Shown here: piece by piece, positions 6,177 through 33,231 of the stretch
Numbering within the stretch: the stretch's first letter is position 1
Layout: each line of letters opens with the position of its first letter
Notes under the pieces: model-generated
Told to the model about the DNA's origin: nothing
The model's database searches: none
The model's input: the letters and a program-made list of their open reading frames with translations, nothing else
Program-made: the position numbers and the translations under genes
Assembly: GCA_035702665.1 (NCBI GenBank)
Contig: DASSQD010000132.1
Span: 1,748-65,747 of the forward strand
Direction of reading: 5' to 3'
Source of the DNA: Burkholderiales bacterium
GTDB taxonomy: Bacteria > Pseudomonadota > Gammaproteobacteria > Burkholderiales > SG8-39
DNA length: 64,000 bases

Positions 6177-7850
6177 CTAGACCCGGTCCCAGTTGAACTT
6201 CGCCTTCGCGCCGCTTCCGTAGACTTTCAGCGCGCCGTGCTCGCCGACCGCGTTGGGCCGGCTGAAGATCCAGTTCTGCCACGCGGACAGCCTGCCGAAG
6301 ATCCGCGTCTCCATGGTCTCCTTGCCCGAGAAGCGCAGGTTGGCCTCCATGCCGGTGAGCGCGTCCGGAGAGAGGCTGGCGCGCTCCTCGATCGCGATGC
6401 GCACCTCGTCGTCCCAGTCGAGGTCGTCGGGCGTGAACGTGACCAGTCCCAGTGCCGAGGCGGCCTTGGCGTCGAGCCTCTCGCCGACGTGCGCGCGCGC
6501 GGCCTCGACCGGCTGCGGATCGCCGCAATAGTGCGTGGCGATCCGCGATTCCCGGTTCACCATCGGGTAGGCGCCGAAGTTCAACTCCGAAAGCGCGATC
6601 ACCGGAGCGCCCGCGTCGTCCGGAAGCTCGAGCATGTAGCTGCGGTCGGCCGCCAGCGCCAGCTCGAACAGGGTGCCCGCGAAGCAGGAGCCCTTGTCGA
6701 TCACGGCGAACAGCGTGCGCGAGGACACGTCCAGCCGCGCGAGGGTGCGGCGCAGGAAGCCGATCACCTCGCGCACGAACCAGTCGCTCTCGTTGGCCTT
6801 CAGCGCGGCGTCCGCGGCGAGGGCCTTGCTTGCGTCGCCCCGCGTGTTGAAGATCCAGGTGCCGATCTCGAGGTCGTTGGTGCGGAGCATCAGGATCGCG
6901 TCGTCCAGCTCGCGCGCCATCGCCAGCGGCCACCACTTGTCGCCGGCGGCGTGAATGGCTGCGACGGAGGAGGGGACGTCCTGGCGCGGCGCGAACACGG
7001 TGATCGTCGCGGTGCGCTGCCTGCGGTCGATTTTCACGTCGACGTTGTCGTAGTGATAGCCTCCCGCGTCGAGCGTGCGCTTGAGCGGATTCAGAGGCAC
7101 GCCCTTGCCGGTCCCGCGCGCGCTCTGCGCCGCCAGCGCGGCCGCGCGCGCGGCGACCGCCTCCTTGAAGCCCTGCGGCTTGGCGGTGTGGTCGACGAGC
7201 TTCCATTGCTTCGCCCGGTCGGCGCGCACGCCCTCGCTGGTCGTGCAGAACACGTCGGCAAGGTCGCGCCTGACCTTTCTCTTGTCGGTGACGCGCGTGA
7301 GGCCGCCCGTCCCCGGGAGCACGCCGAGCAGAGGCAGCTCGGGCAGGCTGACGGTGGAGGAGCGGTCGTCGATCATCAGGATCTCGTCGCAGGCGAGCGC
7401 GAGCTCGTAGCCGCCGCCGGCGACGGTGCCGTTGACCGCCGCGAGCGCCTTGAGGCCGTCGTGCCGGCTCGAATCCTCGATGCCGCTGCGCGTCTCATTG
7501 GTGAACTTGCAGAAATTCACTTTCCATGCGTGAGTCGAGGACCCCAGCATATAGATGTTGGCGCCGGAGCAGAACATGCGCTCGCGCGCGCTCGTGATCA
7601 CCAGGCATTTCACCTCGGGGTGCTCGAAGCGCACGCGGTTCAGCGCGTCGGCGAGCTCGATGTCGACTCCCAGATCGTAGGAGTTGAGCTTGAGCTTGTA
7701 TCCGGGCTTGAGACCCTTGTCCTCGTTCACGTCCATCGAGAGCGTCGCGACCGGGCCGTCGAACGCGAGCTTCCAGTGCTCATAGCGGTCGGGATGCGTG
7801 TCGTAGGTGACGGGAGGGGGAGAAGGCTGGGGTTCGAGGACTGCGCTCAT
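6177..7850 (-). CDS. boxC: 2,3-epoxybenzoyl-CoA dihydrolase (ring-cleaving, crotonase fold)
   Basis: 557 aa from MSAVLEPQ (ATG 7850, inside track ORF 6177..7955). Enoyl-CoA hydratase-like core (AAVNGTVAGGGYELALACD). Length and position 20 nt upstream of boxB fit BoxC. Confidence 0.92.
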   Translation of the reverse strand: MSAVLEPQPSPPPVTYDTHPDRYEHWKLAFDGPVATLSMDVNEDKGLKPGYKLKLNSYDLGVDIELADALNRVRFEHPEVKCLVITSARERMFCSGANIYMLGSSTHAWKVNFCKFTNETRSGIEDSSRHDGLKALAAVNGTVAGGGYELALACDEILMIDDRSSTVSLPELPLLGVLPGTGGLTRVTDKRKVRRDLADVFCTTSEGVRADRAKQWKLVDHTAKPQGFKEAVAARAAALAAQSARGTGKGVPLNPLKRTLDAGGYHYDNVDVKIDRRQRTATITVFAPRQDVPSSVAAIHAAGDKWWPLAMARELDDAILMLRTNDLEIGTWIFNTRGDASKALAADAALKANESDWFVREVIGFLRRTLARLDVSSRTLFAVIDKGSCFAGTLFELALAADRSYMLELPDDAGAPVIALSELNFGAYPMVNRESRIATHYCGDPQPVEAARAHVGERLDAKAASALGLVTFTPDDLDWDDEVRIAIEERASLSPDALTGMEANLRFSGKETMETRIFGRLSAWQNWIFSRPNAVGEHGALKVYGSGAKAKFNWDRV

Positions 7851-7881
7851 GATGTGCTCCGAAATGGGTGGCGATGCCGGC

Positions 7882-8787
7882 CTAGGCCGAGATGGCCTTG
7901 CGCAGCTCCGCCAGGCTCTTCTCGACCGGCTTGCCCGCCGTATCCACGGTGACATCCGCCTGGCGGTAGAGCATCGCGCGGCCTTCCAGTATGCGCCGCA
8001 GATCCTCCATCGCCTGGTCGTTGCCCGCCATCGGACGCGTATCGCCCTGTGCGAGCACGCGAGCCATATGCTCCTCCGGGGCGGCCTTCAGCCAGACGGT
8101 GAAGCAGCTCGACAGCAGCAGGTCGTAGGTCCCGGGCTCGGAGACGATGCTGCCCCCGGTCGCGATCACCGCGCGCTCGTTCCGTTCCAGCACCTTCTCC
8201 AGGCTGCGGCGCTCGTAGCGGCGGTAACCCGACTGCCCGTAGAGCAGGAAGATCTCCGAAAGAGAAGTGCCGGCCTCGCGCTCGACCTCCCGGTCGAGCT
8301 CGACGAAGGGAACGCCCAGCGCCTTGGCGAGCTTTGCGCCCAGCGTCGACTTGCCCGCGCCGCGCAGTCCGATCAGGGCGATCCGCTTCAAGCGCTCGTC
8401 GCGGGCGTTGCCGTAGTCGCGCAGCAGTTGCGAGTGCACGGCGGCGAGCTTCTGGCGCGGGAGTTTTTTCAGAAACTGCGTGGTGAGGTTCAGCTCCGCG
8501 TCCGCGCCGGAGTCCTCGGCGAGCAGCTCGGTGAGGGTGAGCTCGAGGGCCGCGGCGATCTGCCGGAGCAGCAGAATGGAGACGTTGCCCAGTCCCGCCT
8601 CGAGTTGGGCCAGGTAGCGCTCCGATACGCCCGAGTCGGCCGCGAGGACTTTGCGGGACTTCGCTCGCCGGGCGCGCGCTTCCCGCAGTCTTTCCCCCAG
8701 GAGCAGCAGGTAGTCGCGCTCGGGATCCGCGCCGCTTGCGGCGGCGCGAAGCGGAGGCTTCTTGACATCAACGCTCGGTAGGGGCAC
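7882..8787 (-). CDS. boxR: BzdR/BoxR-type regulator (XRE HTH fused to a shikimate-kinase-like domain)
   Basis: 301 aa, GTG start. N-terminal HTH (KVLAADSGVSERYLAQLEAGLGNVSILLLRQIAAAL) plus a P-loop kinase-like domain (IALIGLRGAGKSTLG). Lies immediately upstream of boxC on the same strand. Confidence 0.85.
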   Translation of the reverse strand: MPLPSVDVKKPPLRAAASGADPERDYLLLLGERLREARARRAKSRKVLAADSGVSERYLAQLEAGLGNVSILLLRQIAAALELTLTELLAEDSGADAELNLTTQFLKKLPRQKLAAVHSQLLRDYGNARDERLKRIALIGLRGAGKSTLGAKLAKALGVPFVELDREVEREAGTSLSEIFLLYGQSGYRRYERRSLEKVLERNERAVIATGGSIVSEPGTYDLLLSSCFTVWLKAAPEEHMARVLAQGDTRPMAGNDQAMEDLRRILEGRAMLYRQADVTVDTAGKPVEKSLAELRKAISA

Positions 8788-8789
8788 GG

Positions 8790-8833
8790 TGCAGTATAAT
8801 GCTTGCCATTCGCAAACGCGGCAGTATAATGCA
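8790..8833. promoter_or_regulatory. two 12-bp direct repeats GCAGTATAATGC (TGCA-N6-TGCA-like boxes), putative BoxR operators
   Basis: Perfect copies at 8791-8802 and 8821-8832 (30-bp period) in the 80-bp boxR/flavodoxin divergent gap. In context they read TGCAGTATAATGCT and GGCAGTATAATGCA. Confidence 0.55.
8803..8830 (+). promoter_or_regulatory. sigma70-like promoter for the flavodoxin-bclA operon
   Basis: TTGCCA (8803-8808), 16-nt spacer, TATAAT (8825-8830). The -10 box lies inside the second operator repeat. Confidence 0.45.
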
Positions 8834-8867
8834 GCCCCATGTCGAAACGCAAGCGTGACGTGGCACG

Positions 8868-9344
8868 ATGGCGCTCGGGCTGACGATCCTCGTTGGCACC
8901 ATGACGGGCACGGCGCAGCTGGTGGCGCAGGAGGTGGAGCTGACGCTCGACGATGGCGATACGCGGGTGAGCACGAAGCCCATGGATGGCCTCGACGCGA
9001 GCGTGTTCGCCGGTGGCGGTCTGTTCCTGATCTGTTCGTCGACGTACGGGCAGGGCGACGTGCCCGACAATGCGAAACATCTCTACGAGTCGCTGCTGAA
9101 TCTGCGGCCCGACCTCTCGGGCGTGCAATACGGGGTCATCGCGCTCGGCGACCGCACCTATGCGGAGACCTTCTGCAACGGCGGCCGGCGCTTCGACGCG
9201 ATCCTCGCCGAGCTGGGGGCGCGGCGCATCGGGGAGGTCATGCTGCACGACGCCAGCGCCGGGACGATGCCCGAGGAGCTGGCGGTGGCGTGGGCGGCCG
9301 ACTGGATCGCCCTGTGCCGCAAGGAAGCCAGGCTCGAGGCCTGA
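8868..9344 (+). CDS. flavodoxin
   Basis: 158 aa. ILVGTMTGTAQ resembles the flavodoxin FMN phosphate-binding loop, and the length is short-chain flavodoxin-like. Confidence 0.85.
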   Translation: MALGLTILVGTMTGTAQLVAQEVELTLDDGDTRVSTKPMDGLDASVFAGGGLFLICSSTYGQGDVPDNAKHLYESLLNLRPDLSGVQYGVIALGDRTYAETFCNGGRRFDAILAELGARRIGEVMLHDASAGTMPEELAVAWAADWIALCRKEARLEA

Positions 9345-9368: not shown

Positions 9369-10949
9369 GTGGCGTCGTTCATCAGCGCCGATCATTCGGC
9401 GACCCCTCCGACGGTCCACGTTCCGCGCGACTACAACGCCGCGCACGATCTGATCGAGCGCAACCTTCTCGCGGGCCGCGCGGGCAAGATCGCATTCGTC
9501 GACGACGCCGGCCGGTACACCTACGGCGAGCTCGCGGAGCGCGTCAACCGCTTCGGCTCGGGGCTGCGGGCGCTGGGCATTGAGATGGAAGAGCGCGTGC
9601 TGCTCGCGCTCGCGGATACGATCGACTTCCCGACGGCTTTCCTCGGCGCGATCAAGGCGGGAATCGTCCCGGTCGCGGTCAATACGCTGCTTACGCCGAA
9701 GGACTACGCGCACATGCTCGCCGACAGCCGGGCGCGCGCCCTCGTCGTCTCCGAGCACCTCCTGCCGCAGTTCGAGCCGCTCGTCGGGACAATGCCTTTC
9801 CTGCGGCACGTCATCGTCTCGCGCAGTCGCGAGAAGGGAGGAGCCGCGATCGAGGACGTGCTCGCCGCGGGTTCCGCCGCGCTCGATCCGGCGCCGACCA
9901 CCTCGGACGATGCGTGCTGCTGGTACTACTCCTCGGGCTCGACCGGCGTGCCCAAGGGCGCAGTCCATGTTCACTCGAGCATGGCGATCACGGCCGAGCT
10001 CTACGGCAAGGCGGTGCTGGGAGTCAGGGAGTCGGACGTGCTCTTCTCAGCGGCGAAGCTGTGCTTCGTCTACGGCTTGGGCAACGCGCTCACCTTCACC
10101 CTCGCGGCCGGCGCCACCGGCGTGCTCATGGCCGAGCGCGCGACGCCTCCCGCGGTGTTCAGACGGCTGGTCGAGAGCAGGCCGACCGTATTCTTCGGCG
10201 TGCCCACCCTGTTCGCGTCGATGCTCGCCAGCCCGGAGTTCCCGGGAAAGAGCGAGCTCGCACTGCGCGCCTGCGTCTCCGCGGGCGAGGCGCTCCCCGC
10301 CGAGCTCGGCAAGCGCTGGAGGGAGAAGACCGGTGTCGACATCCTCGAAGGAATCGGCTCGACCGAGATGATGCACATGTACATCAGCGCCCGCCACGGC
10401 GGCGTCCGCTACGGGGCGACGGGCACGGCGGTACCCGGCTACGAGCTGCGGCTCGTGGACGAGGAGGGCAGGCCGGTCGAGCAGGGCGACCTGGGCGAGC
10501 TGCAGGTGCGCGGCCCGACGAGCGCCGCCTACTACTGGAACAACCGGGAAAAAAGCCGCTCGACCTTCCTCGGCCCCTGGTTCCGGAGCGGCGACAAGTT
10601 CAGGCAGGACGAACACGGCTACTTCGTCTACGCCGGCCGCTCCGACGACATGATGAAGGTCTCGGGCCTGTTCGTATCGCCGGCCGAGGTCGAGGCGGCG
10701 CTCGTCAGCCACGACGCGGTCCTCGAGGCCGCGGTGGTCGCCCGCGAGGACGACAACAAGCTGATCAAGCCCAAGGCGTTCGTCGTGCTCAAGGACGGCA
10801 CGTCGCCGTGCGACGAGCTCAAGCTCGCGTTGCAGCAGCACATCAAGGACCGGCTAGCACCCTACAAGTACCCCCGCTGGATCGAGTTCATCCCGGAGCT
10901 GCCCAAGACCCCCACCGGGAAGATCCAGCGCTTCAAGCTCCGTTCCTGA
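9369..10949 (+). CDS. bclA: benzoate-CoA ligase (AMP-forming)
   Basis: 526 aa, GTG start. AMP-binding motif YSSGSTGVPKG and C-terminal PKTPTGKIQRFKLR. The N-terminus (PRDYNAAHDLIERNL...) is typical of benzoate-CoA ligases, and it sits in the box cluster. Confidence 0.9.
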   Translation: MASFISADHSATPPTVHVPRDYNAAHDLIERNLLAGRAGKIAFVDDAGRYTYGELAERVNRFGSGLRALGIEMEERVLLALADTIDFPTAFLGAIKAGIVPVAVNTLLTPKDYAHMLADSRARALVVSEHLLPQFEPLVGTMPFLRHVIVSRSREKGGAAIEDVLAAGSAALDPAPTTSDDACCWYYSSGSTGVPKGAVHVHSSMAITAELYGKAVLGVRESDVLFSAAKLCFVYGLGNALTFTLAAGATGVLMAERATPPAVFRRLVESRPTVFFGVPTLFASMLASPEFPGKSELALRACVSAGEALPAELGKRWREKTGVDILEGIGSTEMMHMYISARHGGVRYGATGTAVPGYELRLVDEEGRPVEQGDLGELQVRGPTSAAYYWNNREKSRSTFLGPWFRSGDKFRQDEHGYFVYAGRSDDMMKVSGLFVSPAEVEAALVSHDAVLEAAVVAREDDNKLIKPKAFVVLKDGTSPCDELKLALQQHIKDRLAPYKYPRWIEFIPELPKTPTGKIQRFKLRS

Positions 10950-18925: not shown

Positions 18926-20509
18926 GTGCCGTCCCGCAGCAGTGCCGACCATTCGGTGAGCCCGCCGAGCGTCAAGATCCCCCGCGACTACAACGCCGCG
19001 TACGACCTGATCGAGCGCAACCTGGCGGCGGGACGCGCCGCGCGGATCGCGTACATCGACGACGCCGGCCAGTACACCTTCGGGCAGCTCGCCGAGCGCG
19101 TCAACCGCTTCGGCTCGGGACTCCGCGCGCTGGGGCTGGACATGGAGCACCGCGTGCTCCTCGCTCTCACCGACACGGTCGACTTTCCGACCGCCTTCCT
19201 CGGCGCGATCAAGGCGGGCATCGTGCCGGTGGCGGTCAACACGCTGCTCACGCCGAAAGACTACGAGTACATGCTCGCGGATAGCCGCGCCAAAGCACTG
19301 ATCGTATCCGAGGCACTGCTTCCGCAATTCGCCGGCGCCATCGGCAGGCTACCCTTCCTCAAGCACGTCATCGTCTCGGGCTCGGGGTCGCCGCAGGGAC
19401 ACCTTGCGTTCAAGGAGGTTCTCGCCAAGGGGGCGCCCGAGCTCGCACCCGCGCCCACGACCTGCGACGACGCCTGCTTCTGGCTGTATTCCTCGGGCTC
19501 GACCGGCATGCCCAAGGGCACGGTGCACGTGCACTCGAGCATGATCATCACCGCGGAGCTCTACGCGCGCGGCGTGCTCGGGTACCGGGAAAGCGACGTG
19601 GTGTTCTCGGCGGCCAAGCTCTTCTTCGCCTACGGGCTGGGCAACGCGCTGTCCTTCACGCTCGCGGTGGGCGCGACCGCCGTGCTGATGGCGGAGAGGC
19701 CGACGCCTGCGGCGGTGTTCAAGCGTTTCAAGGAGAAGAAGCCGACGCTGTTCTTCGGCGTCCCCACGCTCTATGCGGCGATGCTGGCGAGCCCCGACCT
19801 TCCGGGAAGGGAGGCGCTCGCGCTGCGCCAGTGCATCTCGGCGGGAGAGGCCCTGCCGCCGCAGATCGCGAAGCGCTGGAAGGAGAGGATCGGGGTGGAG
19901 ATTCTCGACGGGATCGGATCGACCGAGATGCTCCACATCTTCCTTTCGAACCGCCCGGACGACCTGCGCTACGGCACCACCGGAAAGCCCGTTCCGGGAT
20001 ACGACCTGAGGCTGGTCGACGAGCAGGGCGAGCCGGTGAAGCCAGGGGAGATGGGCGAGCTGCAGATCAGAGGCCCCACCAGCGCAGCGTACTACTGGAA
20101 CAACCGCGAGAAGAGCCGTAGCACCTTCCACGGCGGCTGGACGCGCAGCGGCGACAAGTACACCCAGGACAAGGACGGCTACTACGTCTACGGCGGGCGC
20201 TCCGACGACATGCTGAAAGTGTCCGGGATCTACGTGTCGCCGGCCGAAGTCGAGGCGGCGCTCGTCGGGCACGAGGCGGTTCTCGAGGCGGCCGTCATCG
20301 GTGCCGAGGACGAGAACAAGCTGGTGAAGCCCAAGGCGTTCGTCGTGCTCAAGCCGGGCAATTCCGGCAGCGACGCGCTCAAGGCGGCGCTGCAGCAGCA
20401 CGTGAAGGACAAGCTCGCCCCCTACAAGTATCCGCGCTGGATAGAGTTTCTGCCCGAGTTGCCGAAGACGGCGACCGGGAAGATACAGAGATTCAAGCTG
20501 CGAGCCTGA
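18926..20509 (+). CDS. second benzoate/4-hydroxybenzoate-CoA ligase paralogue
   Basis: 527 aa. GTG 18926 follows AAGGAGG (tail of track ORF 17495..20509). Collinear with bclA over its full length (YSSGSTGMPKG, PKTATGKIQRFKLR). The first ~150 nt look roughly 85% identical to bclA by eye. Confidence 0.9.
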   Translation: MPSRSSADHSVSPPSVKIPRDYNAAYDLIERNLAAGRAARIAYIDDAGQYTFGQLAERVNRFGSGLRALGLDMEHRVLLALTDTVDFPTAFLGAIKAGIVPVAVNTLLTPKDYEYMLADSRAKALIVSEALLPQFAGAIGRLPFLKHVIVSGSGSPQGHLAFKEVLAKGAPELAPAPTTCDDACFWLYSSGSTGMPKGTVHVHSSMIITAELYARGVLGYRESDVVFSAAKLFFAYGLGNALSFTLAVGATAVLMAERPTPAAVFKRFKEKKPTLFFGVPTLYAAMLASPDLPGREALALRQCISAGEALPPQIAKRWKERIGVEILDGIGSTEMLHIFLSNRPDDLRYGTTGKPVPGYDLRLVDEQGEPVKPGEMGELQIRGPTSAAYYWNNREKSRSTFHGGWTRSGDKYTQDKDGYYVYGGRSDDMLKVSGIYVSPAEVEAALVGHEAVLEAAVIGAEDENKLVKPKAFVVLKPGNSGSDALKAALQQHVKDKLAPYKYPRWIEFLPELPKTATGKIQRFKLRA

Positions 20510-26178: not shown

Positions 26179-27147
26179 CTACTTCACCAAGCCGGATTTC
26201 GCGGCGATCTCCGAAACCCGCCGGTGCTCCTCGCGGATCTCGGCGAGCAGCTTCTCCGGGGGGGAATAGTCCATCACCATTCCGAGCGGCTTGAGCTTGG
26301 CGGCGATCGCCGGGGAGTTGATGGCGCGTTCGAGCGCCGGCACCAGGGTCTTGGTGACCTCGGGAGGTACTCCGGCGGGCGCGAAGAAGGCGACCCAGAT
26401 TCCGAACAGACCCTCGGAATAGCCCAGCTCGGTCAGGGTCGGGATGTCCGGGAAATCCGGGTACTTGCTCGAGATGACGATGCCTCGCAGGGCGCCACTC
26501 CTCAGATGGCCCGTCATGGTGCCCAGGGCGAGGACGACGCCCTCCACGTGGCCGCCCAGCAGCGCGGTTACGCCGGGTGATGCCCCGGTGAAAGGGACGG
26601 GAACGAGGCCTGCGCCGGTGAGCGAGTTGATGGTTCGGATGCAGAATTCGCCGACCGATCCGGCGCCGGCGGTGCCGATGCGCACGCCCCCCGGATTCTT
26701 CTTCGCGAACGCCACCAATTCGGCGAGCGTCCTGTACGGCGCGTCGCCGCGCACCGCGAGAATGCTCGGCGAGCGCATCGCCAAGCCCAGAGGCGTGAGA
26801 TCCGTGAGAGGGTTGTAGCTCGCGGTCTTCGGGTCGAGTATCGACCTGAAAACGAGCGACGCGTTGTTGGTCAGGATGATGGTGTTGCCGTCGGGCTTGG
26901 ATTTCACGACGGCTTCGGTTCCGACGGCGCCGCCGGCGCCCGGCCGGTTCACCGGAATGATGGAGACCTTGAGCTCGTGCGAAAGCTCCTCGGCGATCGC
27001 GCGCGCCGAGGTATCGGTCGCGTCGCCGGGCGCGAGCGGAATGACCAGCGTGACCGCGCCGCGGGGATAGTCCTCGGCGTGAAGCGGCAGGGCCGCGGCG
27101 AGCAGCAGCGCCCCACAGGAAAATAACAGACTCTCTCTGGTCGTCAT
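26179..27147 (-). CDS. Bug-family (TctC-like) tripartite tricarboxylate transporter substrate-binding protein
   Basis: 322 aa with a signal peptide. Bug-family signatures (VTLVIPLAPGDATDTSARAIAEEL, NRPGAGGAVG, KPDGNTIIL). Confidence 0.9.
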   Translation of the reverse strand: MTTRESLLFSCGALLLAAALPLHAEDYPRGAVTLVIPLAPGDATDTSARAIAEELSHELKVSIIPVNRPGAGGAVGTEAVVKSKPDGNTIILTNNASLVFRSILDPKTASYNPLTDLTPLGLAMRSPSILAVRGDAPYRTLAELVAFAKKNPGGVRIGTAGAGSVGEFCIRTINSLTGAGLVPVPFTGASPGVTALLGGHVEGVVLALGTMTGHLRSGALRGIVISSKYPDFPDIPTLTELGYSEGLFGIWVAFFAPAGVPPEVTKTLVPALERAINSPAIAAKLKPLGMVMDYSPPEKLLAEIREEHRRVSEIAAKSGLVK

Positions 27148-27187
27148 GAAGACTGCGCGGTAAGGATGGATGTCAACCGGCCGATTC

Positions 27188-27203
27188 TATCGCATCAAAA
27201 CGT
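27188..27203. repeat. left 16-bp direct repeat TATCGCATCAAAACGT
   Basis: Exact copy of 29873-29888. Non-coding, 40 nt upstream of the Bug gene start. Confidence 0.85.
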
Positions 27204-27238
27204 CAATAGCCACGTAACCCGCTGATTTTTCTAACGGC

Positions 27239-27427
27239 CTAGCTTGAACAATTCCGAAATACCGTCACGGGTGGAAGGATCCTCAAAGAGAAAGGCCGTC
27301 GCTGTAGACCTTGCGCAATCCATGCGCGCATCACGGTCAACGCGTCGCGACAGGCTAAAGCAGAGATCGTAAGGGTCTCCTCACCGTTCTTGGTAGCCCA
27401 GGACCGGCGGGCATAGTTAATGTTCAT
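27239..27427 (-). CDS. hypothetical 62-aa ORF at the tail of the islet operon
   Basis: Overlaps the hemerythrin stop by 11 nt. No recognisable features; it could be non-coding. Confidence 0.3.
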   Translation of the reverse strand: MNINYARRSWATKNGEETLTISALACRDALTVMRAWIAQGLQRRPFSLRILPPVTVFRNCSS

Positions 27428-27854
27428 TTCGAGTCCTCAAGAAATCGTGGAAATCCGCGTCCTCGTGGACTAGGTGACTGACCAGAAGGACCTTGAGTTG
27501 TACCGGAGATAGAGCCCATTTACTTCCAGCGGCTGCATCCATCGCCAAGGTGCCGCGGTCTCTCCGAGCCATCGGTCTGAGGATTGCCCTGATATCGTTG
27601 TGGCGCCGCGTGTGGGAGTATCGATCGGGATAACCGTATCGCGCGAGGAGCCTGTCCTCCTTGTCAAAATGCGCCAGGGCGTCTTGCGCGATCGCTCGCA
27701 TGTGTCCTTCTACAACGGATTCTTCGGACCCTGCGGAAACTGCGCGTTCCAAATTTCCAAGTAGTAGCCCGAAGTGCCGATGGTCACTATCGATCTCATC
27801 GACTCCGATACGCGAGTTGTCGCTCCACTGCCACCGCGCTAGGTCTAGATCCAC
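27417..27854 (-). CDS. bacteriohemerythrin-like protein
   Basis: 145 aa, GTG start. W-x-W...IGVDEIDSDH at the N-terminus, with ligand-type residues in canonical order (H, AHFDKED, HTRRH, SHLVHED). Confidence 0.85.
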   Translation of the reverse strand: MDLDLARWQWSDNSRIGVDEIDSDHRHFGLLLGNLERAVSAGSEESVVEGHMRAIAQDALAHFDKEDRLLARYGYPDRYSHTRRHNDIRAILRPMARRDRGTLAMDAAAGSKWALSPVQLKVLLVSHLVHEDADFHDFLRTRNEH

Positions 27855-27873
27855 TAGCCCCTCTCAGTGCGTG

Positions 27874-28080
27874 TTACTGCTTCGCGCCCTCGTCTGGAAA
27901 CGAACCAGCACCACCCTTGGCCTGTGGCGCACGGCGCCGAAGTGCTTCGTCACACCATGAAGCTACGAGATCATCTCTGGCTCGTTCCGCATTCTTCTTG
28001 AGGGCGCGCAGCTGTGACGCTCCGAGAGCGTCCACTTCATCTCTTGTCCACCTTCCCCGCAGGGCCATGCTAGGTGGCAC
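27874..28080 (-). CDS. hypothetical 68-aa protein
   Basis: Same-strand ORF 19 nt upstream of the hemerythrin gene. Helical-looking (WTRDEVDALGASQLRALKKNAERARDDL). No family assigned. Confidence 0.45.
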   Translation of the reverse strand: MPPSMALRGRWTRDEVDALGASQLRALKKNAERARDDLVASWCDEALRRRAPQAKGGAGSFPDEGAKQ

Positions 28081-28139
28081 CCGGGTGCGAAGCGCTGGTT
28101 ACGTTTGCAGACGACGTAGTGTCCACGTGCGCGAGGCGA

Positions 28140-28397
28140 CTAATGTTTGTTACTCCCCGCAGGGATGTGAATCCCAACGCTGCGGCCAAACGAGAAGCCC
28201 CCGAGTTCCTTTTTCAACGCGGCGTTTTGGCTAGCCGAGCCAAGGTCAATGAGGCAAACGTAACCTTTGGCCCCATCCGGAAAGATTTGGATCAACACGA
28301 CCCGTCCTATCGGACGGCAGAGGTCCTTGAGGCCTTGCTCAAGCTCCGTTCGGTTTCTAAGACTCTGCAGCTTTTCGAGAAAGTGTGTGTCGAGCAC
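28140..28397 (-). CDS. hypothetical 85-aa protein
   Basis: Same-strand ORF in the operon (GRVVLIQIFPDGAKGYVCLIDLGSASQNAALKKELGGFSFG). An antisense 114-aa ORF (28074..28418) also looks protein-like, so strand assignment rests on operon geometry. Confidence 0.5.
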   Translation of the reverse strand: MLDTHFLEKLQSLRNRTELEQGLKDLCRPIGRVVLIQIFPDGAKGYVCLIDLGSASQNAALKKELGGFSFGRSVGIHIPAGSNKH

Positions 28398-28414
28398 GAC
28401 GTCACCCAGAACAT

Positions 28415-28666
28415 CTAGGGCGACCTCAATTTCGGTTTCATTAATGTTGGACGAGCCTCAGCGGAACGAATGAGGCTCCAGGTGGCAAAGGACCCCCTGC
28501 ACTGCGGCTTGCCTCCATTACACGGCGGGAACGGAAATCCCTTCTGCAGCGAGGTCTCGACACCGCAGCATAGTGAGCGGTAGACCCCGTAGATCTCGTT
28601 TGCAGCGCCGGCGGCGGGCAAAGCCGTACCTCCTTCCGAGCTACAGTATGGACTCGCGCATTGCAA
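28415..28666 (-). CDS. hypothetical Cys-rich 83-aa protein
   Basis: TTG start 3 nt after the lipoprotein stop. Six Cys (C3, C8, C32, C33, C48, C55). No family assigned. Confidence 0.45.
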   Translation of the reverse strand: MQCASPYCSSEGGTALPAAGAANEIYGVYRSLCCGVETSLQKGFPFPPCNGGKPQCRGSFATWSLIRSAEARPTLMKPKLRSP

Positions 28667-28669
28667 GGA

Positions 28670-28912
28670 TTACTTCTTGGCGTCCTTGCTCGAGTCTGGC
28701 GCAGTCTTGGCCGCTTCTGCGGCGCCCTTCGCTGCCTCACCCGACACAGCGGTCGGTGCGGTCGGTGCGGTCGGAGCCGTGGGAGTAGTGGTTGGAGTTA
28801 TGGCCGGGGCCGGGCTAGTCGGGGCGGCAGCAGGAGGCGGGGTGCTGGGGCTCTTGCTGCAGCCAACAAGTGCGGCGCCTACTAAGGTAAAGACGATTGC
28901 TGTGTGCTTCAC
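28670..28912 (-). CDS. small lipoprotein with a Pro/Thr/Ala-rich linker
   Basis: 80 aa, GTG start, lipobox LVGC. (T-A-P)x3 is encoded by tandem ACCGCACCG units (about 28754-28780). Lys-rich C-terminus. Confidence 0.65.
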   Translation of the reverse strand: MKHTAIVFTLVGAALVGCSKSPSTPPPAAAPTSPAPAITPTTTPTAPTAPTAPTAVSGEAAKGAAEAAKTAPDSSKDAKK

Positions 28913-29038
28913 TGGATATGGTCTCCCGAGGTTGAGGCAAAGCCAAAACGTTACATTGTCATCTTATACCACTTATATGGAATTGCAATTATAATGATAT
29001 GATAATAACCACGACGTAAGGCATTGAGGAAAGAGACA
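28913..29038. promoter_or_regulatory. AT-rich divergent promoter region of the islet
   Basis: 126-bp gap between the lipoprotein start (minus) and the RHH ATG (plus). It appears to be the lowest-GC stretch seen in the window. Perfect palindrome AATTGCAATT (28981-28990) abuts TATAAT (28990-28995). Confidence 0.5.
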
Positions 29039-29245
29039 ATGGAGAACAAGACCTCCCGCTTCACAGTCCTAATCGATCCCAGGAAGAAGAAGATCTTTGA
29101 GGAAATCTGTGCTGCCCAGGACTTAACACCTTCGCAAGTGGTGCGCCAGATGATCCGCGAGTACGTCATCGAGCACGCCGGCGACAGGGTGCTCCCAGAC
29201 TGGCTATACAAGGCCGCGACCAAGAAGGGACCCCGGCGAACCTAA
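29039..29245 (+). CDS. ribbon-helix-helix (CopG/ParD-like) DNA-binding protein
   Basis: 68 aa from the ATG preceded by AGGAAAGAG (the track starts at TTG 29024). TSRFTVLIDPRKKKIFEEICAAQDLTPSQVVRQMIREYV fits a beta-strand + two helices RHH pattern. Confidence 0.7.
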   Translation: MENKTSRFTVLIDPRKKKIFEEICAAQDLTPSQVVRQMIREYVIEHAGDRVLPDWLYKAATKKGPRRT

Positions 29246-29287
29246 ACTCCCTCTTCAGCACGTAATCTCAGCCGGACACGGACGGAA

Positions 29288-29821
29288 ATGACACCGTCGA
29301 TACTCGACGACCCGCGCTTCAGAGATCGCTCAATGGCGCGCCTTCACCTAGCGTTGATCCGGTGGCCCAATGGTCCGGTGTGCCCCCACTGCCACGCGAT
29401 CAATCCAGTGAGCAAACTTCGGCGGCCGAGAATCTACTGCCGCGAATGCAGGAGTCAGTTCACGGTGACGGCAGGTACGGTCTTTGAGAACACCAAGATC
29501 CCCCTCCAAAAATGGATCCTCGCTGCCGCAGTGCTCGCTGCCGGCGAGAAGCCCACACCCATCCGACAGCTCCAGCGCATTCTCGGTGTGGCCTACGCCA
29601 CGGCCTGGTCGATAAGCAGCAGTTTGCGCGCTACAACGTCGCTTCGAGCTCCTCGGGGGCAAACGCTCAAGTGCGTTGACGAAATCCTCTTGAGGATGCT
29701 GAGTACGCGGCCGCGCTTTTCCCCTCAATCTATCGCGAGCGCGACGAGGCTAAAACGCTTGTCAGCCGAGGCCAACAAGAGTCCGCTCGGATCTGGGGAA
29801 TCCGGGGATATACGTGTTTGA
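29288..29821 (+). pseudogene. IS1595-family transposase N-terminal Zn-ribbon/HTH portion only (DDE domain absent)
   Basis: 177 aa. IRWPNGPVCPHCH...YCRECRSQFTVTAGTVFENTKIPLQKWILA matches the N-terminal zinc-ribbon region of ISXO2/IS1595 transposases. Nothing resembling a DDE catalytic domain follows. Confidence 0.6.
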
Positions 29822-29872
29822 AGTAGCCTCAGCGTTGGACGACAGTGGACAATCGTAGAGCAAGCCTAGCGG

Positions 29873-29888
29873 TATCGCATCAAAACGT
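29873..29888. repeat. right 16-bp direct repeat TATCGCATCAAAACGT
   Basis: Exact copy of 27188-27203. Contains the last codons and stop of the Omp85-family gene (minus strand ACG TTT TGA). Confidence 0.85.
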
Positions 29889-31601
29889 GGTCTGGCTCTG
29901 CACCAGATACTGGACTCTCTTGATGCTCGGGTCATAGGTCAGCGGGAAGGCGAGATCGATGTGCAGCACGTTTCCGAAAGCCGTCCGCGCATTCAAGATG
30001 CGCAAGCCGAAGCCCACATCGCTGATCCAGCCGGCGTGCTCCGTGTTTGCACCGGCGCCGCCCCATGCCCGGCCCAGGTCGTAGAACACGGCGCCCCCGA
30101 CTCGAAACAGCCGTATCGGATACCAGTCCGTGTAGACGCGGCTCTCGACGTTGGCCACCACGCGGTTGTCGCCGCTCTGGTAGTTCCGGGGATATCCCCG
30201 AAGGCCGGTGTCGCCTCCCAGCACGAGCTGCGTGGAGGCGGTGGCGTCTCTCAGAACGTCGCCGGCCAGGGAGAAGAAGAGGAGGGTGCGGCTGTTGGGG
30301 CGGCTGTAGTACTTGGCCGAAGCGCTCGATGCCTGCTTGTCGAGAGGGCCGTACCCCGTCTGGCCGATGGCCGAGACCGAGCCGAGCAGAATTCCGCCCG
30401 TGGAAGTGCGGTATCCATCGCTGGCGCTGACGGTGTAGAGCCAGAGCTCCTGGGTCGATCCCAATCCCGTCAGGGAGCGGCCGATCTGAACGTTCGACTG
30501 CCATCCCATCACGAGGTACTCGGGCCGTTCGATGAGATCCAGGTTCTTGTACTTCTCGTACTTGTCCTCGACGAGTTCGTAGCGAAGGTACGGCGAGACG
30601 AGAGTCTGGTCCGGAGGCAATTCCGCGGGGGCCGGCAGACTCGCCTCGGTGTTGTAGGAATTTTTCTGATAGTTGATTCCGATCGAGTAGCGCTGCACCC
30701 ACTTGCCGACGAGGCCCCGCGACCACCCGCCGAAAGCGTCGACCGTTTCCTGCCGGTGGCGGAACTGCGCCGACGTCTGGCCGTTCGCGAAGAGCGAGTC
30801 GATCTGATCGCCCTTGGACGCCGTGGCCCCCGCGGCCCAGCGCGTGTCCAGAGCGTAGAACGGGCGCGTGACCGAGATCGCCCGGCTTTCGCCGTCGCTG
30901 TTCTGGCTCAGGGAGTAGTTGACGCTGGTCCACCCGTCGAACGCGTGCGGGTCCACCGCCTGGTACAGGGTGCCCGACCGATCGGCGTTGGAGAAGCGGT
31001 TGATGCCGATCTGGATGCCGGTGCCTAGCGCGTTGGTTTCAGTGAACCCGATGTTCGTTCGGTTGGAGCCTCCGGTGCGGCTGAAGCTCGCGCCGGGCTG
31101 CAATGACCATGTATCGCGCGTCCTGACCTCGATATCGACGACTCCGTCATGAACGGCGACCGGAACAATGCTGACGTCGTAGAGGACCCTGTTCGATCGC
31201 AGCAGTCGCTCGGTTTCATCGATCACGTGGACCGAGACGCGGTCGCCTGTCTTGAAGAGCAGCTGACGCTCGATCACCCAGGGTCGCGTCTGGATGTGAA
31301 TCGCGTTCGCCGCCCGGTAAAGCGCGTTGTTCTCGTTCGGATCCTCGGGATCGAAGATATTGTGCGTGACGACCTGGACCTTGCCGATCCTTGCGCCGGC
31401 GGCTTCGAGCTCGGCGAACGAGGGGATCTTCTCGCTCGCCGGCGCCTCAGCCGGAGCAGGGGGCTTTCCCTCCGACGGCATTTCCTGAGCCGAGACGGGC
31501 GCGAGCGCGCTGAGGACCAGCGCAAGACCAGCGTGCGCCGCAACGCGGAGACGGAGCGCGTATTTCCCGGTCCGGCCCGGTTGAACGAGTCGGTCTAACA
31601 C
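29880..31601 (-). CDS. Omp85/BamA-family outer-membrane protein (single POTRA + surface-antigen beta-barrel)
   Basis: 573 aa with signal peptide LALVLSALAPVSAQE. POTRA-like segment (IGKVQVVTHNIFDP...VDIEVRTRDTWS), then a beta-barrel with a terminal Phe. Confidence 0.85.
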   Translation of the reverse strand: MLDRLVQPGRTGKYALRLRVAAHAGLALVLSALAPVSAQEMPSEGKPPAPAEAPASEKIPSFAELEAAGARIGKVQVVTHNIFDPEDPNENNALYRAANAIHIQTRPWVIERQLLFKTGDRVSVHVIDETERLLRSNRVLYDVSIVPVAVHDGVVDIEVRTRDTWSLQPGASFSRTGGSNRTNIGFTETNALGTGIQIGINRFSNADRSGTLYQAVDPHAFDGWTSVNYSLSQNSDGESRAISVTRPFYALDTRWAAGATASKGDQIDSLFANGQTSAQFRHRQETVDAFGGWSRGLVGKWVQRYSIGINYQKNSYNTEASLPAPAELPPDQTLVSPYLRYELVEDKYEKYKNLDLIERPEYLVMGWQSNVQIGRSLTGLGSTQELWLYTVSASDGYRTSTGGILLGSVSAIGQTGYGPLDKQASSASAKYYSRPNSRTLLFFSLAGDVLRDATASTQLVLGGDTGLRGYPRNYQSGDNRVVANVESRVYTDWYPIRLFRVGGAVFYDLGRAWGGAGANTEHAGWISDVGFGLRILNARTAFGNVLHIDLAFPLTYDPSIKRVQYLVQSQTTF

Positions 31602-31673: not shown

Positions 31674-32144
31674 TCAGGATATCTCGTAGCCGAGCTTCCT
31701 GCATTGCGCGTGCGCGTAACGCAGGCCGGCCGCGCGCTCCAGGCGGCCGCCGTCCGCCGCGACGACTTCCGCTTGGCGGATGTAGAGGACCAGGGGATAG
31801 ACCTGGCCGTAGGTGCCGCGCGGATCACGCTCGCTGACCATCACGCATACCGCCCATCCGTACTGCCGCTCGCGCGAAAGCGTCTGCGTCTGGTAGAGGG
31901 GCGAAGGGCCGGCCTTGAATTCGATGAGCGCGAAGGCGGGCTCGTTGAGGCGGGGCCGCAGATACTCGCGGACCAGGCTTTCGTAGTTCTCGGGACGCGC
32001 CCCGTAATCGAGCGCCGCGATCTGCTCCGGAGACAGGGGAGGCGATTGACACCCGGCAAGGGACGCGAGAGCGAGCGCCGCCGCGAGCCGACCCACGGAG
32101 CCGCCCGTCAGGGCGCGACGAAGGGCGCGCCCAGCTCGTTGCAT
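31674..32144 (-). CDS. lipoprotein, paralogue 1 (unknown family)
   Basis: Tail of track ORF 31674..32537. Lipobox LASLAGC. Start is ATG 32144 (overlapping the upstream gene) or GTG 32096. Shares EFKAGP...QYGWxVCV...YPxVxxIR with the next gene. Confidence 0.65.
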   Translation of the reverse strand: MQRAGRALRRALTGGSVGRLAAALALASLAGCQSPPLSPEQIAALDYGARPENYESLVREYLRPRLNEPAFALIEFKAGPSPLYQTQTLSRERQYGWAVCVMVSERDPRGTYGQVYPLVLYIRQAEVVAADGGRLERAAGLRYAHAQCRKLGYEIS

Positions 32145-32572
32145 CCGGTGCGCGCGTATCGCCAACCGATGACGTTGTCGTTCGCGCCGCCGTTCACCGC
32201 GACGATCTGCCCGTCGCGGATGAAGAAGACCATCGGATACGCGCCTTCGTAGGCTCCTTTCGCGTCCTTCTCGTTCACCCACACGCAGACTCCCCAGCCG
32301 TACTGCAGCGGCCGCAGTGCCGTTTCCTGCTGGAACAGCTCTCGCGGGCCGGCCTTGAACTCGACGATCGCGCCGGCGGGATCGTGAAGCTTGGGCGAGA
32401 GGTAGTCGCGGATGAGCGTCTCGTAGCCGTCGGGGCGCGGGCCGTAGTTGTAGGCCGCCATTTCCTCCTGGGTCGGAGGGTTCTTGCATCCCGCGGCCAA
32501 AGCCGTTGCCATGCCGAAGGCCGCAAGCATCCGCCACGGGCGCCGGATGCGCCCTCGTTCTCGGCGTCGCAT
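32108..32572 (-). CDS. lipoprotein, paralogue 2 (unknown family)
   Basis: Tail of track ORF 32108..32995. Lipobox ALAAGC. Start is ATG 32572 or 32530. Tandem paralogue of 31674..32144. Confidence 0.65.
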   Translation of the reverse strand: MRRRERGRIRRPWRMLAAFGMATALAAGCKNPPTQEEMAAYNYGPRPDGYETLIRDYLSPKLHDPAGAIVEFKAGPRELFQQETALRPLQYGWGVCVWVNEKDAKGAYEGAYPMVFFIRDGQIVAVNGGANDNVIGWRYARTGCNELGAPFVAP

Positions 32573-32577
32573 GGCCC

Positions 32578-33231
32578 CTACTTCGGCTGGGCGACGGTCC
32601 GCAGGTACGGCTTGAGCGTCTTGAACCCCTGGGGATACTTCTTCTTCGCGTCCTCGTCGGACACCGAGGTCGGGATGATGACGTCCTGGCCCGGTCTCCA
32701 GTTCACCGGCGTCGCGACCGCGTGCTTGGCGCCGAGCTGGAGCGAGTCGAGCAGCCGCAGAACCTCGTCGAAGTTGCGGCCCGCGCTCATCGGGTAGATC
32801 AGCATCGCCTTCACCTTCTTGTCGGGGCCGATCATGAACACCGAGCGTATCGTGGCGTTGTCGGCCGCGGAGCGCTTTCCGCCGCTGGCGTTGGGGTGGA
32901 TCATGTCGTACAGCTTGGCGACGTTCAGATCGGCATCGCCGATCATTGGATAGTTTACCGCGGCGCCCTGCGTCTCCTTGATGTCGTTGACCCACCGCTG
33001 ATGATCGCTCACCGGGTCGATGGAGAGCCCGATGATCTTGGTGTTGCGCTTGTCGAATTCAGGCTTGAGCTTCGCCATGTACCCGAGCTCGGTGGTGCAG
33101 ACGGGCGTGAAATCCTTTGGGTGCGAGAACAGAATCGCCCATTTGTCCCCGATCCATTCATGGAACCGGATCTTGCCCTCGGTGGTGTCCGCCGTGAAAT
33201 CCGGCGCCTCGTCTCCAATGCGAATGGCCAT
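32578..33231 (-). CDS. 1-Cys peroxiredoxin (Prx6-type)
   Basis: 217 aa. Peroxidatic motif HPKDFTPVCTTE, with no second Cys in the protein. Confidence 0.9.
   Translation of the reverse strand: MAIRIGDEAPDFTADTTEGKIRFHEWIGDKWAILFSHPKDFTPVCTTELGYMAKLKPEFDKRNTKIIGLSIDPVSDHQRWVNDIKETQGAAVNYPMIGDADLNVAKLYDMIHPNASGGKRSAADNATIRSVFMIGPDKKVKAMLIYPMSAGRNFDEVLRLLDSLQLGAKHAVATPVNWRPGQDVIIPTSVSDEDAKKKYPQGFKTLKPYLRTVAQPK

Follow-up and report, generated by a model that had tools for sequence, protein, structure and literature searches.

A low-GC gene islet between perfect 16-bp direct repeats at the 3′ end of an Omp85-family gene in a Burkholderiales genome

The islet and its direct repeats

This report concerns an islet of low GC content in a 64,000-nucleotide stretch of DNA from a Burkholderiales bacterium (assembly GCA_035702665.1, contig DASSQD010000132.1, positions 1,748 to 65,747; hereafter the window). 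The islet lies between two host genes of the same orientation, one for an Omp85-superfamily outer-membrane protein and the other for a TctC/Bug-family substrate-binding protein, and it carries a set of small genes between two perfect 16-bp direct repeats (Table 1). The repeated 16-mer, TATCGCATCAAAACGT, occurs in exactly two copies in the window, at 27188-27203 and 29873-29888, just where the initial annotation of this DNA had placed them, and no third copy is found in the 64 kb even when up to two mismatches are allowed. On the strand of the Omp85-family gene the site reads ACGTTTTGATGCGATA. The right copy, written on the minus strand as ACG TTT TGA TGCGATA, thus contains the end of the Omp85-family open reading frame (ORF), two codons and the stop codon, and the left copy is 40 nt upstream of the TctC/Bug start codon, the ATG at 27147, both as had been described. 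The sequences directly outside the two copies have nothing in common between the junctions. If the DNA between the repeats is removed together with one copy, the reconstructed empty site is ...CAGAGCCAGACC-ACGTTTTGATGCGATA-GAATCGGCCGG..., and the predicted junction of an excised circle is ...GCAAGCCTAGCGG-TATCGCATCAAAACGT-CAATAGCCACG.... Because the duplication includes the stop codon, the Omp85 protein retains its C-terminal ...TTF. A terminal aromatic residue is typical of outer-membrane β-barrels.

The islet also stands out in composition. GC content between the repeats is 57.6%, as against 67.9% in the remaining window (67.8% and 65.5% in the 5-kb flanks), so that the drop first estimated by eye at about 15 points is real but amounts to about 10. 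In the whole 64 kb, 1-kb segments below 60% GC occur only at 26751-30000, and the lowest-GC segment of 2,685 bp starts at 27101-27201. A far lower GC content had been suspected near 28.94-29.03 kb, and the AT-rich spot at 28900-29199 indeed has 48%. GC at third codon positions (GC3) is 0.54-0.77 in the islet genes and 0.86 and 0.83 in the flanking genes.

Table 1. Features of the islet and of the host genes on either side (positions in the window)
Feature	Position	Strand	Remarks
TctC/Bug-family substrate-binding protein gene	26179-27147	-	PF03401 (E=3e-47); host gene, ancestral downstream neighbour of Omp85
Left copy of 16-bp repeat	27188-27203		TctC-proximal; abuts ancestral intergenic GAATCG...; GAATC follows the single 16-mer in relatives too
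Inserted DNA	27204-29872		2,669 bp, 57.6% GC; missing from all relatives
Left end segment	27204-27416		213 nt without recognisable gene; no homologue among loci fetched
Hemerythrin-domain protein, 145 aa	27417-27854	-	PF01814 (E=1.7e-9), TIGR02481 (5.6e-16); last operon gene
Small helical protein (p68)	27874-28080	-	No family match; likely true start ATG at 28068
85-aa protein	28140-28397	-	Weak RRM-like signature; no family match
Cys-rich small protein, about 67 aa	28415-28666	-	Start codon uncertain; best-conserved operon gene
Lipoprotein, 80 aa	28670-28912	-	Signal peptide, lipobox ...LVGC, Pro/Thr/Ala-rich repeat; first operon gene
AT-rich divergent intergenic region	28913-29038		Between operon and RHH_9 gene
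RHH_9 ribbon-helix-helix (CopG-like) protein, 68 aa	29039-29245	+	PF19839 (E=2e-34)
IS1595-type N-terminal ORF, 177 aa	29288-29821	+	Zinc ribbon, helix-turn-helix (HTH), first catalytic Asp region; PF12760, no PF12762
Right end segment	29822-29872		No homology; no inverted repeat to left end
Right copy of 16-bp repeat	29873-29888		Encodes Thr-Phe-stop of Omp85-family gene; Omp85 3′-end alignment with L001-L004 continues through this copy
Omp85-superfamily outer-membrane protein gene	29880-31601	-	573 aa, PF01103; host gene, intact; stop inside target

Empty sites in relatives

Related loci were collected in two ways. A search with the Omp85-family protein among GTDB species representatives yielded four contigs (L001-L004) of metagenome-assembled genomes (MAGs) classified as Burkholderiales or 'Gammaproteobacteria', in which the Omp85 protein is 72-77% identical to that of the window and always ends in the same ...TTF*; the TctC gene starts 37-113 nt past the Omp85 stop codon in each of the four. 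In addition, 10 of the 24 JGI metagenome contigs that encode a TctC protein in the at least 90% identity cluster of the window protein were examined, and all of them have the same Omp85-TctC arrangement with a 62-nt spacer and with matching synteny on both sides. The 16-mer is present with one mismatch at nine of these ten sites, the tenth contig ending before the site, and in one recognisable copy with one or two mismatches in L001, L003 and L004. It reads ACGTTTTGATGCGtTA in L003, ACGTTTTGATGaGATA in L001, ACGTTcTGATGCGcTA in L004 and ACGTTTTGATGgGATA in the nine JGI contigs (L006-L010 and L012-L015), in each case followed by GAATC, whereas L002 has a more divergent site (ACTTTCTGA, separated by an 18-nt insertion from ...TAGAATC). 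All 13 readable sites, which represent at least four lineages, are thus single-copy and have no islet, and the empty-site allele that had been predicted is found in every relative.

When the window is aligned with L003, the left-flank alignment stops at 27203 and the right one resumes at 29873, both at the same 16 nt of L003. The single-copy empty site in relatives identifies the segment as an insertion and the repeat as a base-exact duplication of its target. How much weight does a 16-bp repeat deserve by itself? The number of chance 16-mer matches in 64 kb had been put at about 0.5, too low an estimate for such GC-rich DNA, as the window has 25 pairs of exact direct repeats 16 nt or longer, roughly half of which fall within one paralogous gene pair. 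Since both copies match one ancestral 16-mer and homology breaks at the repeat edges, the chance occurrence of repeats is irrelevant here. Two positions of the 16-mer vary among the relatives, position 12 (C, G or A) and position 14 (A, T or C), and the two copies in the window are identical at both. Empty sites and composition together support the earlier proposal of a foreign insertion whose repeat preserves the Omp85 C-terminus, and that the segment is a genuine foreign insertion with target duplication can be regarded as almost certain.

An ancestral segment, lost in the relatives by deletion between the 16-bp repeats, would account for the empty sites as well, as direct-repeat recombination would restore just the site that is seen. 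However, the empty site occurs in at least four lineages, and the flanking DNA of the nearest empty-site relatives is 75-85% identical to the window, so that loss would demand repeated, independent and precise events and a gain in the lineage of the window is far more parsimonious. The GC content and GC3 of the segment are foreign to the host genome as well, and its gene module occurs elsewhere in unrelated contexts; ancestry followed by loss is therefore very improbable. The same low standing is given to an assembly chimera, in which a low-GC piece from another organism would have been joined into the contig. The window does derive from a MAG, but a 16-bp repeat is far below the k-mer length of assemblers and base-exact target duplications at both junctions are not a product of chimerism. 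Moreover, a Logan assembly made independently from run SRR25158214 (L005, 6,335 nt) yields the same 6.3 kb over the islet and both junctions, which makes a chimera very unlikely. Its sole difference from the window is one unit of a 9-nt tandem repeat (28749-28757), which may be a length polymorphism. This tandem repeat (GCGGTCGGT units, 28741-28786) codes for the Pro/Thr/Ala-rich linker of the lipoprotein.

A short motif next to the target was also noticed. TAGAATC (27182-27188 on the minus strand, 4 nt past the TGA of the repeat) is kept at the empty sites of all relatives (L001-L004 and L006), though the spacer otherwise diverges. It may serve the TctC gene, which it still adjoins after the insertion, as a -10 element or some other signal.

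Gene content and recurrence of the module

Five closely spaced genes, co-directional on the minus strand, form the operon of the islet, and the RHH_9 gene is divergent from it. These genes constitute a module, consisting of RHH_9, the lipoprotein, the Cys-rich protein of about 67 aa, the RRM-like protein of about 85 aa, the small helical protein and, in some copies, the hemerythrin-domain protein. RHH_9 has more than 1,500 homologues with 64-99% identity. Within the module, the Cys-rich protein is 71-81% identical in five other loci (L026, L036, L037, L042 and L124), in which p68 also has homologues with 49-74% identity at the same module position. Homologues of the 85-aa protein (46-50% identity) occur in L026 and L042, and in L036 and L037/L038 the module is accompanied by hemerythrin homologues with 60-70% identity. 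Similarity of the 85-aa protein to RRM proteins in PDB is non-significant (E=0.4-1). The AT-rich intergenic region is conserved along with its flanking genes in L026, L036, L042 and L124; it presumably holds a promoter and an operator, and the RHH_9 protein is the presumed regulator of the divergent operon. A simple scan of the islet for promoters and terminators gave nothing exceeding the shuffle expectation. From the gene order, read-through from the cargo operon into the co-directional downstream TctC gene would be possible.

None of the islet ORFs matches a phage family of known function or a defence system. A phage or defence role of the cargo was considered and dropped: PHROGs gave weak repressor-like matches for RHH_9 only, and PADLOC gave none. 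Matches of RHH_9 to TAL effectors in PDB (E about 1e-8 to 1e-10) were likewise set aside as a repeat-summing artefact without a significant single stretch; they rest on LTPSQVV within RHH_9 residues 18-36, which resembles the TALE repeat LTPEQVV.

The module has been found in several other places. Over 27434-29232, a segment bounded by the stop codons of the hemerythrin and RHH_9 genes, the window has 72-86% DNA identity to a JGI soil contig (L036, = L044). There, the same six genes (7272-9033) lie amid genes for DNA methylases, an Mrr-type nuclease, Gp49/HTH_37, DUF3800 and a Tle1-like lipase of the type VI secretion system, in DNA whose GC content in 500-nt segments is 51-64%, mostly 52-60%. 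In L026-L035, DUF2269 and a nitroreductase-like gene enclose a low-GC region of 4.6 kb that holds the module (L026, 4912-6207). In L042/L043, which encode an RHH_9 protein 99% identical to that of the window, a five-gene module (L042, 4795-6207) stands out as a patch of 1.5 kb with low GC content in a host genome of 68-70% GC and starts 75 nt past a tRNA-Leu(CAA) gene. Partial or complete modules are also present in L037/L038 and L124, and the remaining 77 RHH_9 loci fetched have the RHH_9 gene alone in common with the window. In the module copies homology ends at the outermost gene ends, so the termini of the element are not definable from these diverged copies. Recurrence in unrelated contexts indicates that the module is mobile over evolutionary time. 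The donor had a GC content of roughly 55-58%, and this lower-GC origin accounts for the islet's composition.

Other candidates for a boundary or a carrier did not hold up. At the L042 islet, no tRNA-derived repeat of at least 10 nt is found on the far side, and a 15-nt near-repeat (14/15) around the module was discarded as a boundary, since the left copy of that repeat lies within sequence over which the module copies are still homologous. In plasmids, the only matches are to the RHH_9 gene, in unrelated contexts (Cupriavidus, Burkholderia, Variovorax and Sulfuricella replicons), and phages and IMG/VR viral contigs gave no match to the element.

The IS1595-type ORF begins 42 nt past the RHH_9 gene. 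The annotation had called it an IS1595 fragment, and its homology to the N-terminal part of IS1595 transposases stands: full-length homologues of about 305 aa align to it by tblastn over their first 125-152 residues only. No DDE remnant is found downstream of it in any frame. Whether it is a fragment is more doubtful. Its closest homologue, P0018 (57% identity; L039/L040, 347-826), sits elsewhere, beside a cytochrome c gene, again with no DDE remnant downstream; the two proteins have the same end point just past VDE[IT]LL, which contains the first catalytic Asp, and a common tail, LLR[MI]LSTRPR. This suggests that the ORF may be a conserved DDE-less zinc-ribbon/HTH protein, that is, a short gene and not a random fragment. 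The idea that RHH_9 is a passenger of IS1595 was rejected, as an IS1595 homologue is present at none of the 80 metagenome RHH_9 loci, from which it also follows that the IS-like ORF joined the module separately. In L018-L023 an IS1595-family transposase is split by a frameshift into 202 and 93 aa, and in L018 it adjoins a Mu-like transposase/IstB pair. The 64-aa gene upstream of the frameshifted copy in L018 is unrelated to RHH_9, though it has the same spacing.

Elsewhere in the window, two pairs of paralogues were observed. The stretches 9426-10793 and 18983-20353 are co-oriented and have exact runs of 16-27 nt in common; the former is within an AMP-binding (acyl-CoA synthetase-like) gene (9369-10949), and the latter is upstream of a dCache-PAS-GGDEF gene, where relatives have an AMP-binding gene too. 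Upstream of the Omp85 gene, 31674-32252 and 32108-32800 on the minus strand encode tandem paralogous small proteins without a Pfam match, whose C-terminal halves are alike (…YGWAVCVMVSERDPRGTYGQVYPLVLYIR… and …YGWGVCVWVNEKDAKGAYEGAYPMVFFIR…) and which are kept in relatives as a pair of 146- and 149-aa genes.

Routes of insertion and known systems

How did the islet enter the chromosome? Perfect, target-derived and sharply bounded repeats imply either a single crossover at a 16-bp core or a 16-bp-staggered cut followed by repair. We tentatively prefer the former, site-specific (Campbell-type) integration, as the most likely of the readings. The islet is non-autonomous and horizontally acquired, and it entered the chromosome at the 16-bp site that spans the end of the Omp85-family gene, two codons and the stop. 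According to the preferred model, a circular intermediate carrying an identical 16-bp core would have undergone a single crossover with the chromosome, and the recombinase gene would have resided elsewhere or been lost since, leaving a defective integrative element or one resembling a cis-mobilizable element (CIME). The perfect repeats would still permit excision, either by an enzyme acting in trans or by repeat-mediated deletion. The position of the target at a gene 3′ end speaks for this model, as do the perfect and sharply bounded repeats with no target bases lost and the location of another module copy beside a tRNA gene. To regard the repeats as attL and attR is accordingly plausible, if unproven.

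Several observations weigh against integration of this kind. Domain searches of the islet ORFs gave no integrase, excisionase, relaxase or transfer gene, in agreement with the original remark that no integrase or recombinase lies inside. A Pfam scan of about 40 larger ORFs of the window found no recombinase either; the genes it recognised are for metabolism, c-di-GMP signalling, ABC transport and type II secretion. No other element occupies the site in the 13 readable sites of relatives, nor is there any sign of a recurrently used attB. The 16-mer is absent at the five other contexts bearing the same cargo module, and the end segments of the islet have no second copy among the loci fetched. 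Finally, the two copies agree at the variable positions 12 and 14, which is automatic for a copied target but a coincidence if one copy came from an attP. Of the attL/attR proposal, then, the target-derived insertion has stood, whereas att function has gained no support from these searches, which found no other element at the site, no 16-mer at the five module contexts and no integrase remnant. Regeneration of the reading frame, which had been taken as a sign of integration, does not discriminate, as any target duplication spanning the stop codon does likewise. A tRNA, tmRNA or Rfam RNA, as target or as cargo, is found nowhere across the window.

A staggered cut could have been made by a transposase acting in trans, the element being joined to target ends cut 16 bp apart and the gaps repaired to leave a 16-bp target-site duplication (TSD). 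A repeat that is perfect, sharply bounded and wholly target-derived is what such transposition would leave, and the inclusion of non-conserved intergenic positions in the repeat is what a copied target would show; there is also an IS-derived ORF inside the islet. The initial annotation dismissed a transposase because 16 bp is too long a duplication, which is right for the IS1595 family (7-9 bp; PMC12561309) but not in general, since the IS1202 group makes duplications of 16-28 bp (PMC10132070). A stronger argument than repeat length is the absence of terminal inverted repeats (TIRs): the left end scores 16 against the reverse-complemented right end, and the shuffle mean is 15.4. Nor does the islet have 5′-TGT...ACA-3′ ends of the IS1202/Tn7 type. 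It contains no intact transposase, as its sole transposase-like ORF belongs to the IS1595 family, whose members have 7-9 bp repeats and TIRs (PMC12561309), and lacks most of the DDE domain, and a transposase was not found among the larger window ORFs scanned. Transposition with a long TSD thus appears somewhat unlikely. Without any dedicated mobile-element enzyme, a linear piece of foreign DNA could have been captured when a double-strand break with staggered ends was repaired, through illegitimate end-joining and fill-in of 16-nt overhangs. The islet offers no recombinase, inverted repeats or conserved ends, and it has a mosaic look, the module being joined to an IS-like ORF unrelated to it and to two anonymous segments at the ends. 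However, such capture is rare in bacteria and would seldom be expected to leave a clean, perfect 16-bp duplication without loss or gain of bases, and recurrence of the module as compact islets, one of them beside a tRNA gene, points to a regular route of mobility; we consider this explanation quite unlikely. Still less probable, though conceivable, is that the RHH_9/hemerythrin module represents the cargo of an undescribed class of small recombinase-less cassettes without TIRs and with 16-bp duplications, which would be inserted by a host enzyme or by a trans-acting transposase recruited by the conserved DDE-less IS1595-type DNA-binding protein travelling with the cassette.

What does the islet add? 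It documents, with base resolution, a gene gain in an uncultured lineage of soil Burkholderiales, with both junctions, the empty site and a donor-like composition. It also shows that a small uncharacterised RHH_9 module moves between betaproteobacterial genomes, and so provides a handle on PF19839, a very abundant family of unknown function. If further copies had variable 16-bp duplications, they would be a pointer to an unrecognised long-TSD insertion mechanism. As an ordinary genomic islet, the finding alters no current view.

Among known systems, CIMEs are decayed integrative elements, mobilizable in cis and flanked by attL and attR, that have been defined for derivatives of streptococcal elements that are integrative and either conjugative (ICEs) or mobilizable (IMEs; PMC5704250). 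The islet resembles them in being small, devoid of integration and transfer genes, flanked by direct repeats and foreign in composition, and in preserving the 3′ end of a gene; its perfect repeats derive from one chromosomal site. Unlike CIMEs, it has no remnant of an ICE or IME module, so that recognisable descent from such an element is missing. In addition, no related functional element is known at its site, the repeats are only candidate substrates of a recombinase, and the host is a betaproteobacterial MAG and not a Firmicute. With islets inserted by tyrosine recombinases at tRNA genes or other gene 3′ ends it shares a core identity of about 16 bp, a gene 3′ end as target and low GC content, and another copy of the cargo module lies just downstream of a tRNA-Leu gene; an integrase gene beside one of the repeats, the usual hallmark of such islets, is absent here. 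Integrative mobile elements exploiting Xer (IMEX) are flanked by 28-bp dif-like sites composed of a XerC arm, a 6-bp spacer and a XerD arm; in a comparison of the site and its flanks with the dif consensus by eye, a weak test, just the CGCAT core of the XerC arm matches the islet site and no XerD arm is seen.

Transposable elements provide the other comparison. Members of the IS1202 group are about 1.5 kb long, with TIRs of 24-26 bp ending in TGT...ACA, a TnsB-like transposase of about 440-460 aa and duplications of 16-28 bp (PMC10132070). The 16-bp duplication of the islet falls within this range, but its ends read CAATAG... and ...CTAGCGG, and it has neither TIRs nor an ORF for a transposase of about 440-460 aa. 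The IS1595 family, with 7-9 bp target repeats and TIRs, includes derivatives of the miniature inverted-repeat transposable element (MITE) and mobile insertion cassette (MIC) types that are mobilised in trans (PMC12561309). One islet ORF shows homology with the zinc-ribbon/HTH N-terminus of IS1595 transposases, but it is without most of the DDE domain, the islet is without TIRs, and the duplication is 16 and not 7-9 bp. Because its termini, its lack of a transposase and, for IS1595, the length of its duplication differ from those of these elements, the islet is not an IS1595 element, an IS1202 element or a MITE/MIC. It is an ordinary genomic islet, non-autonomous and bordered by a repeat that derives from the target, and as such it is of a known kind.

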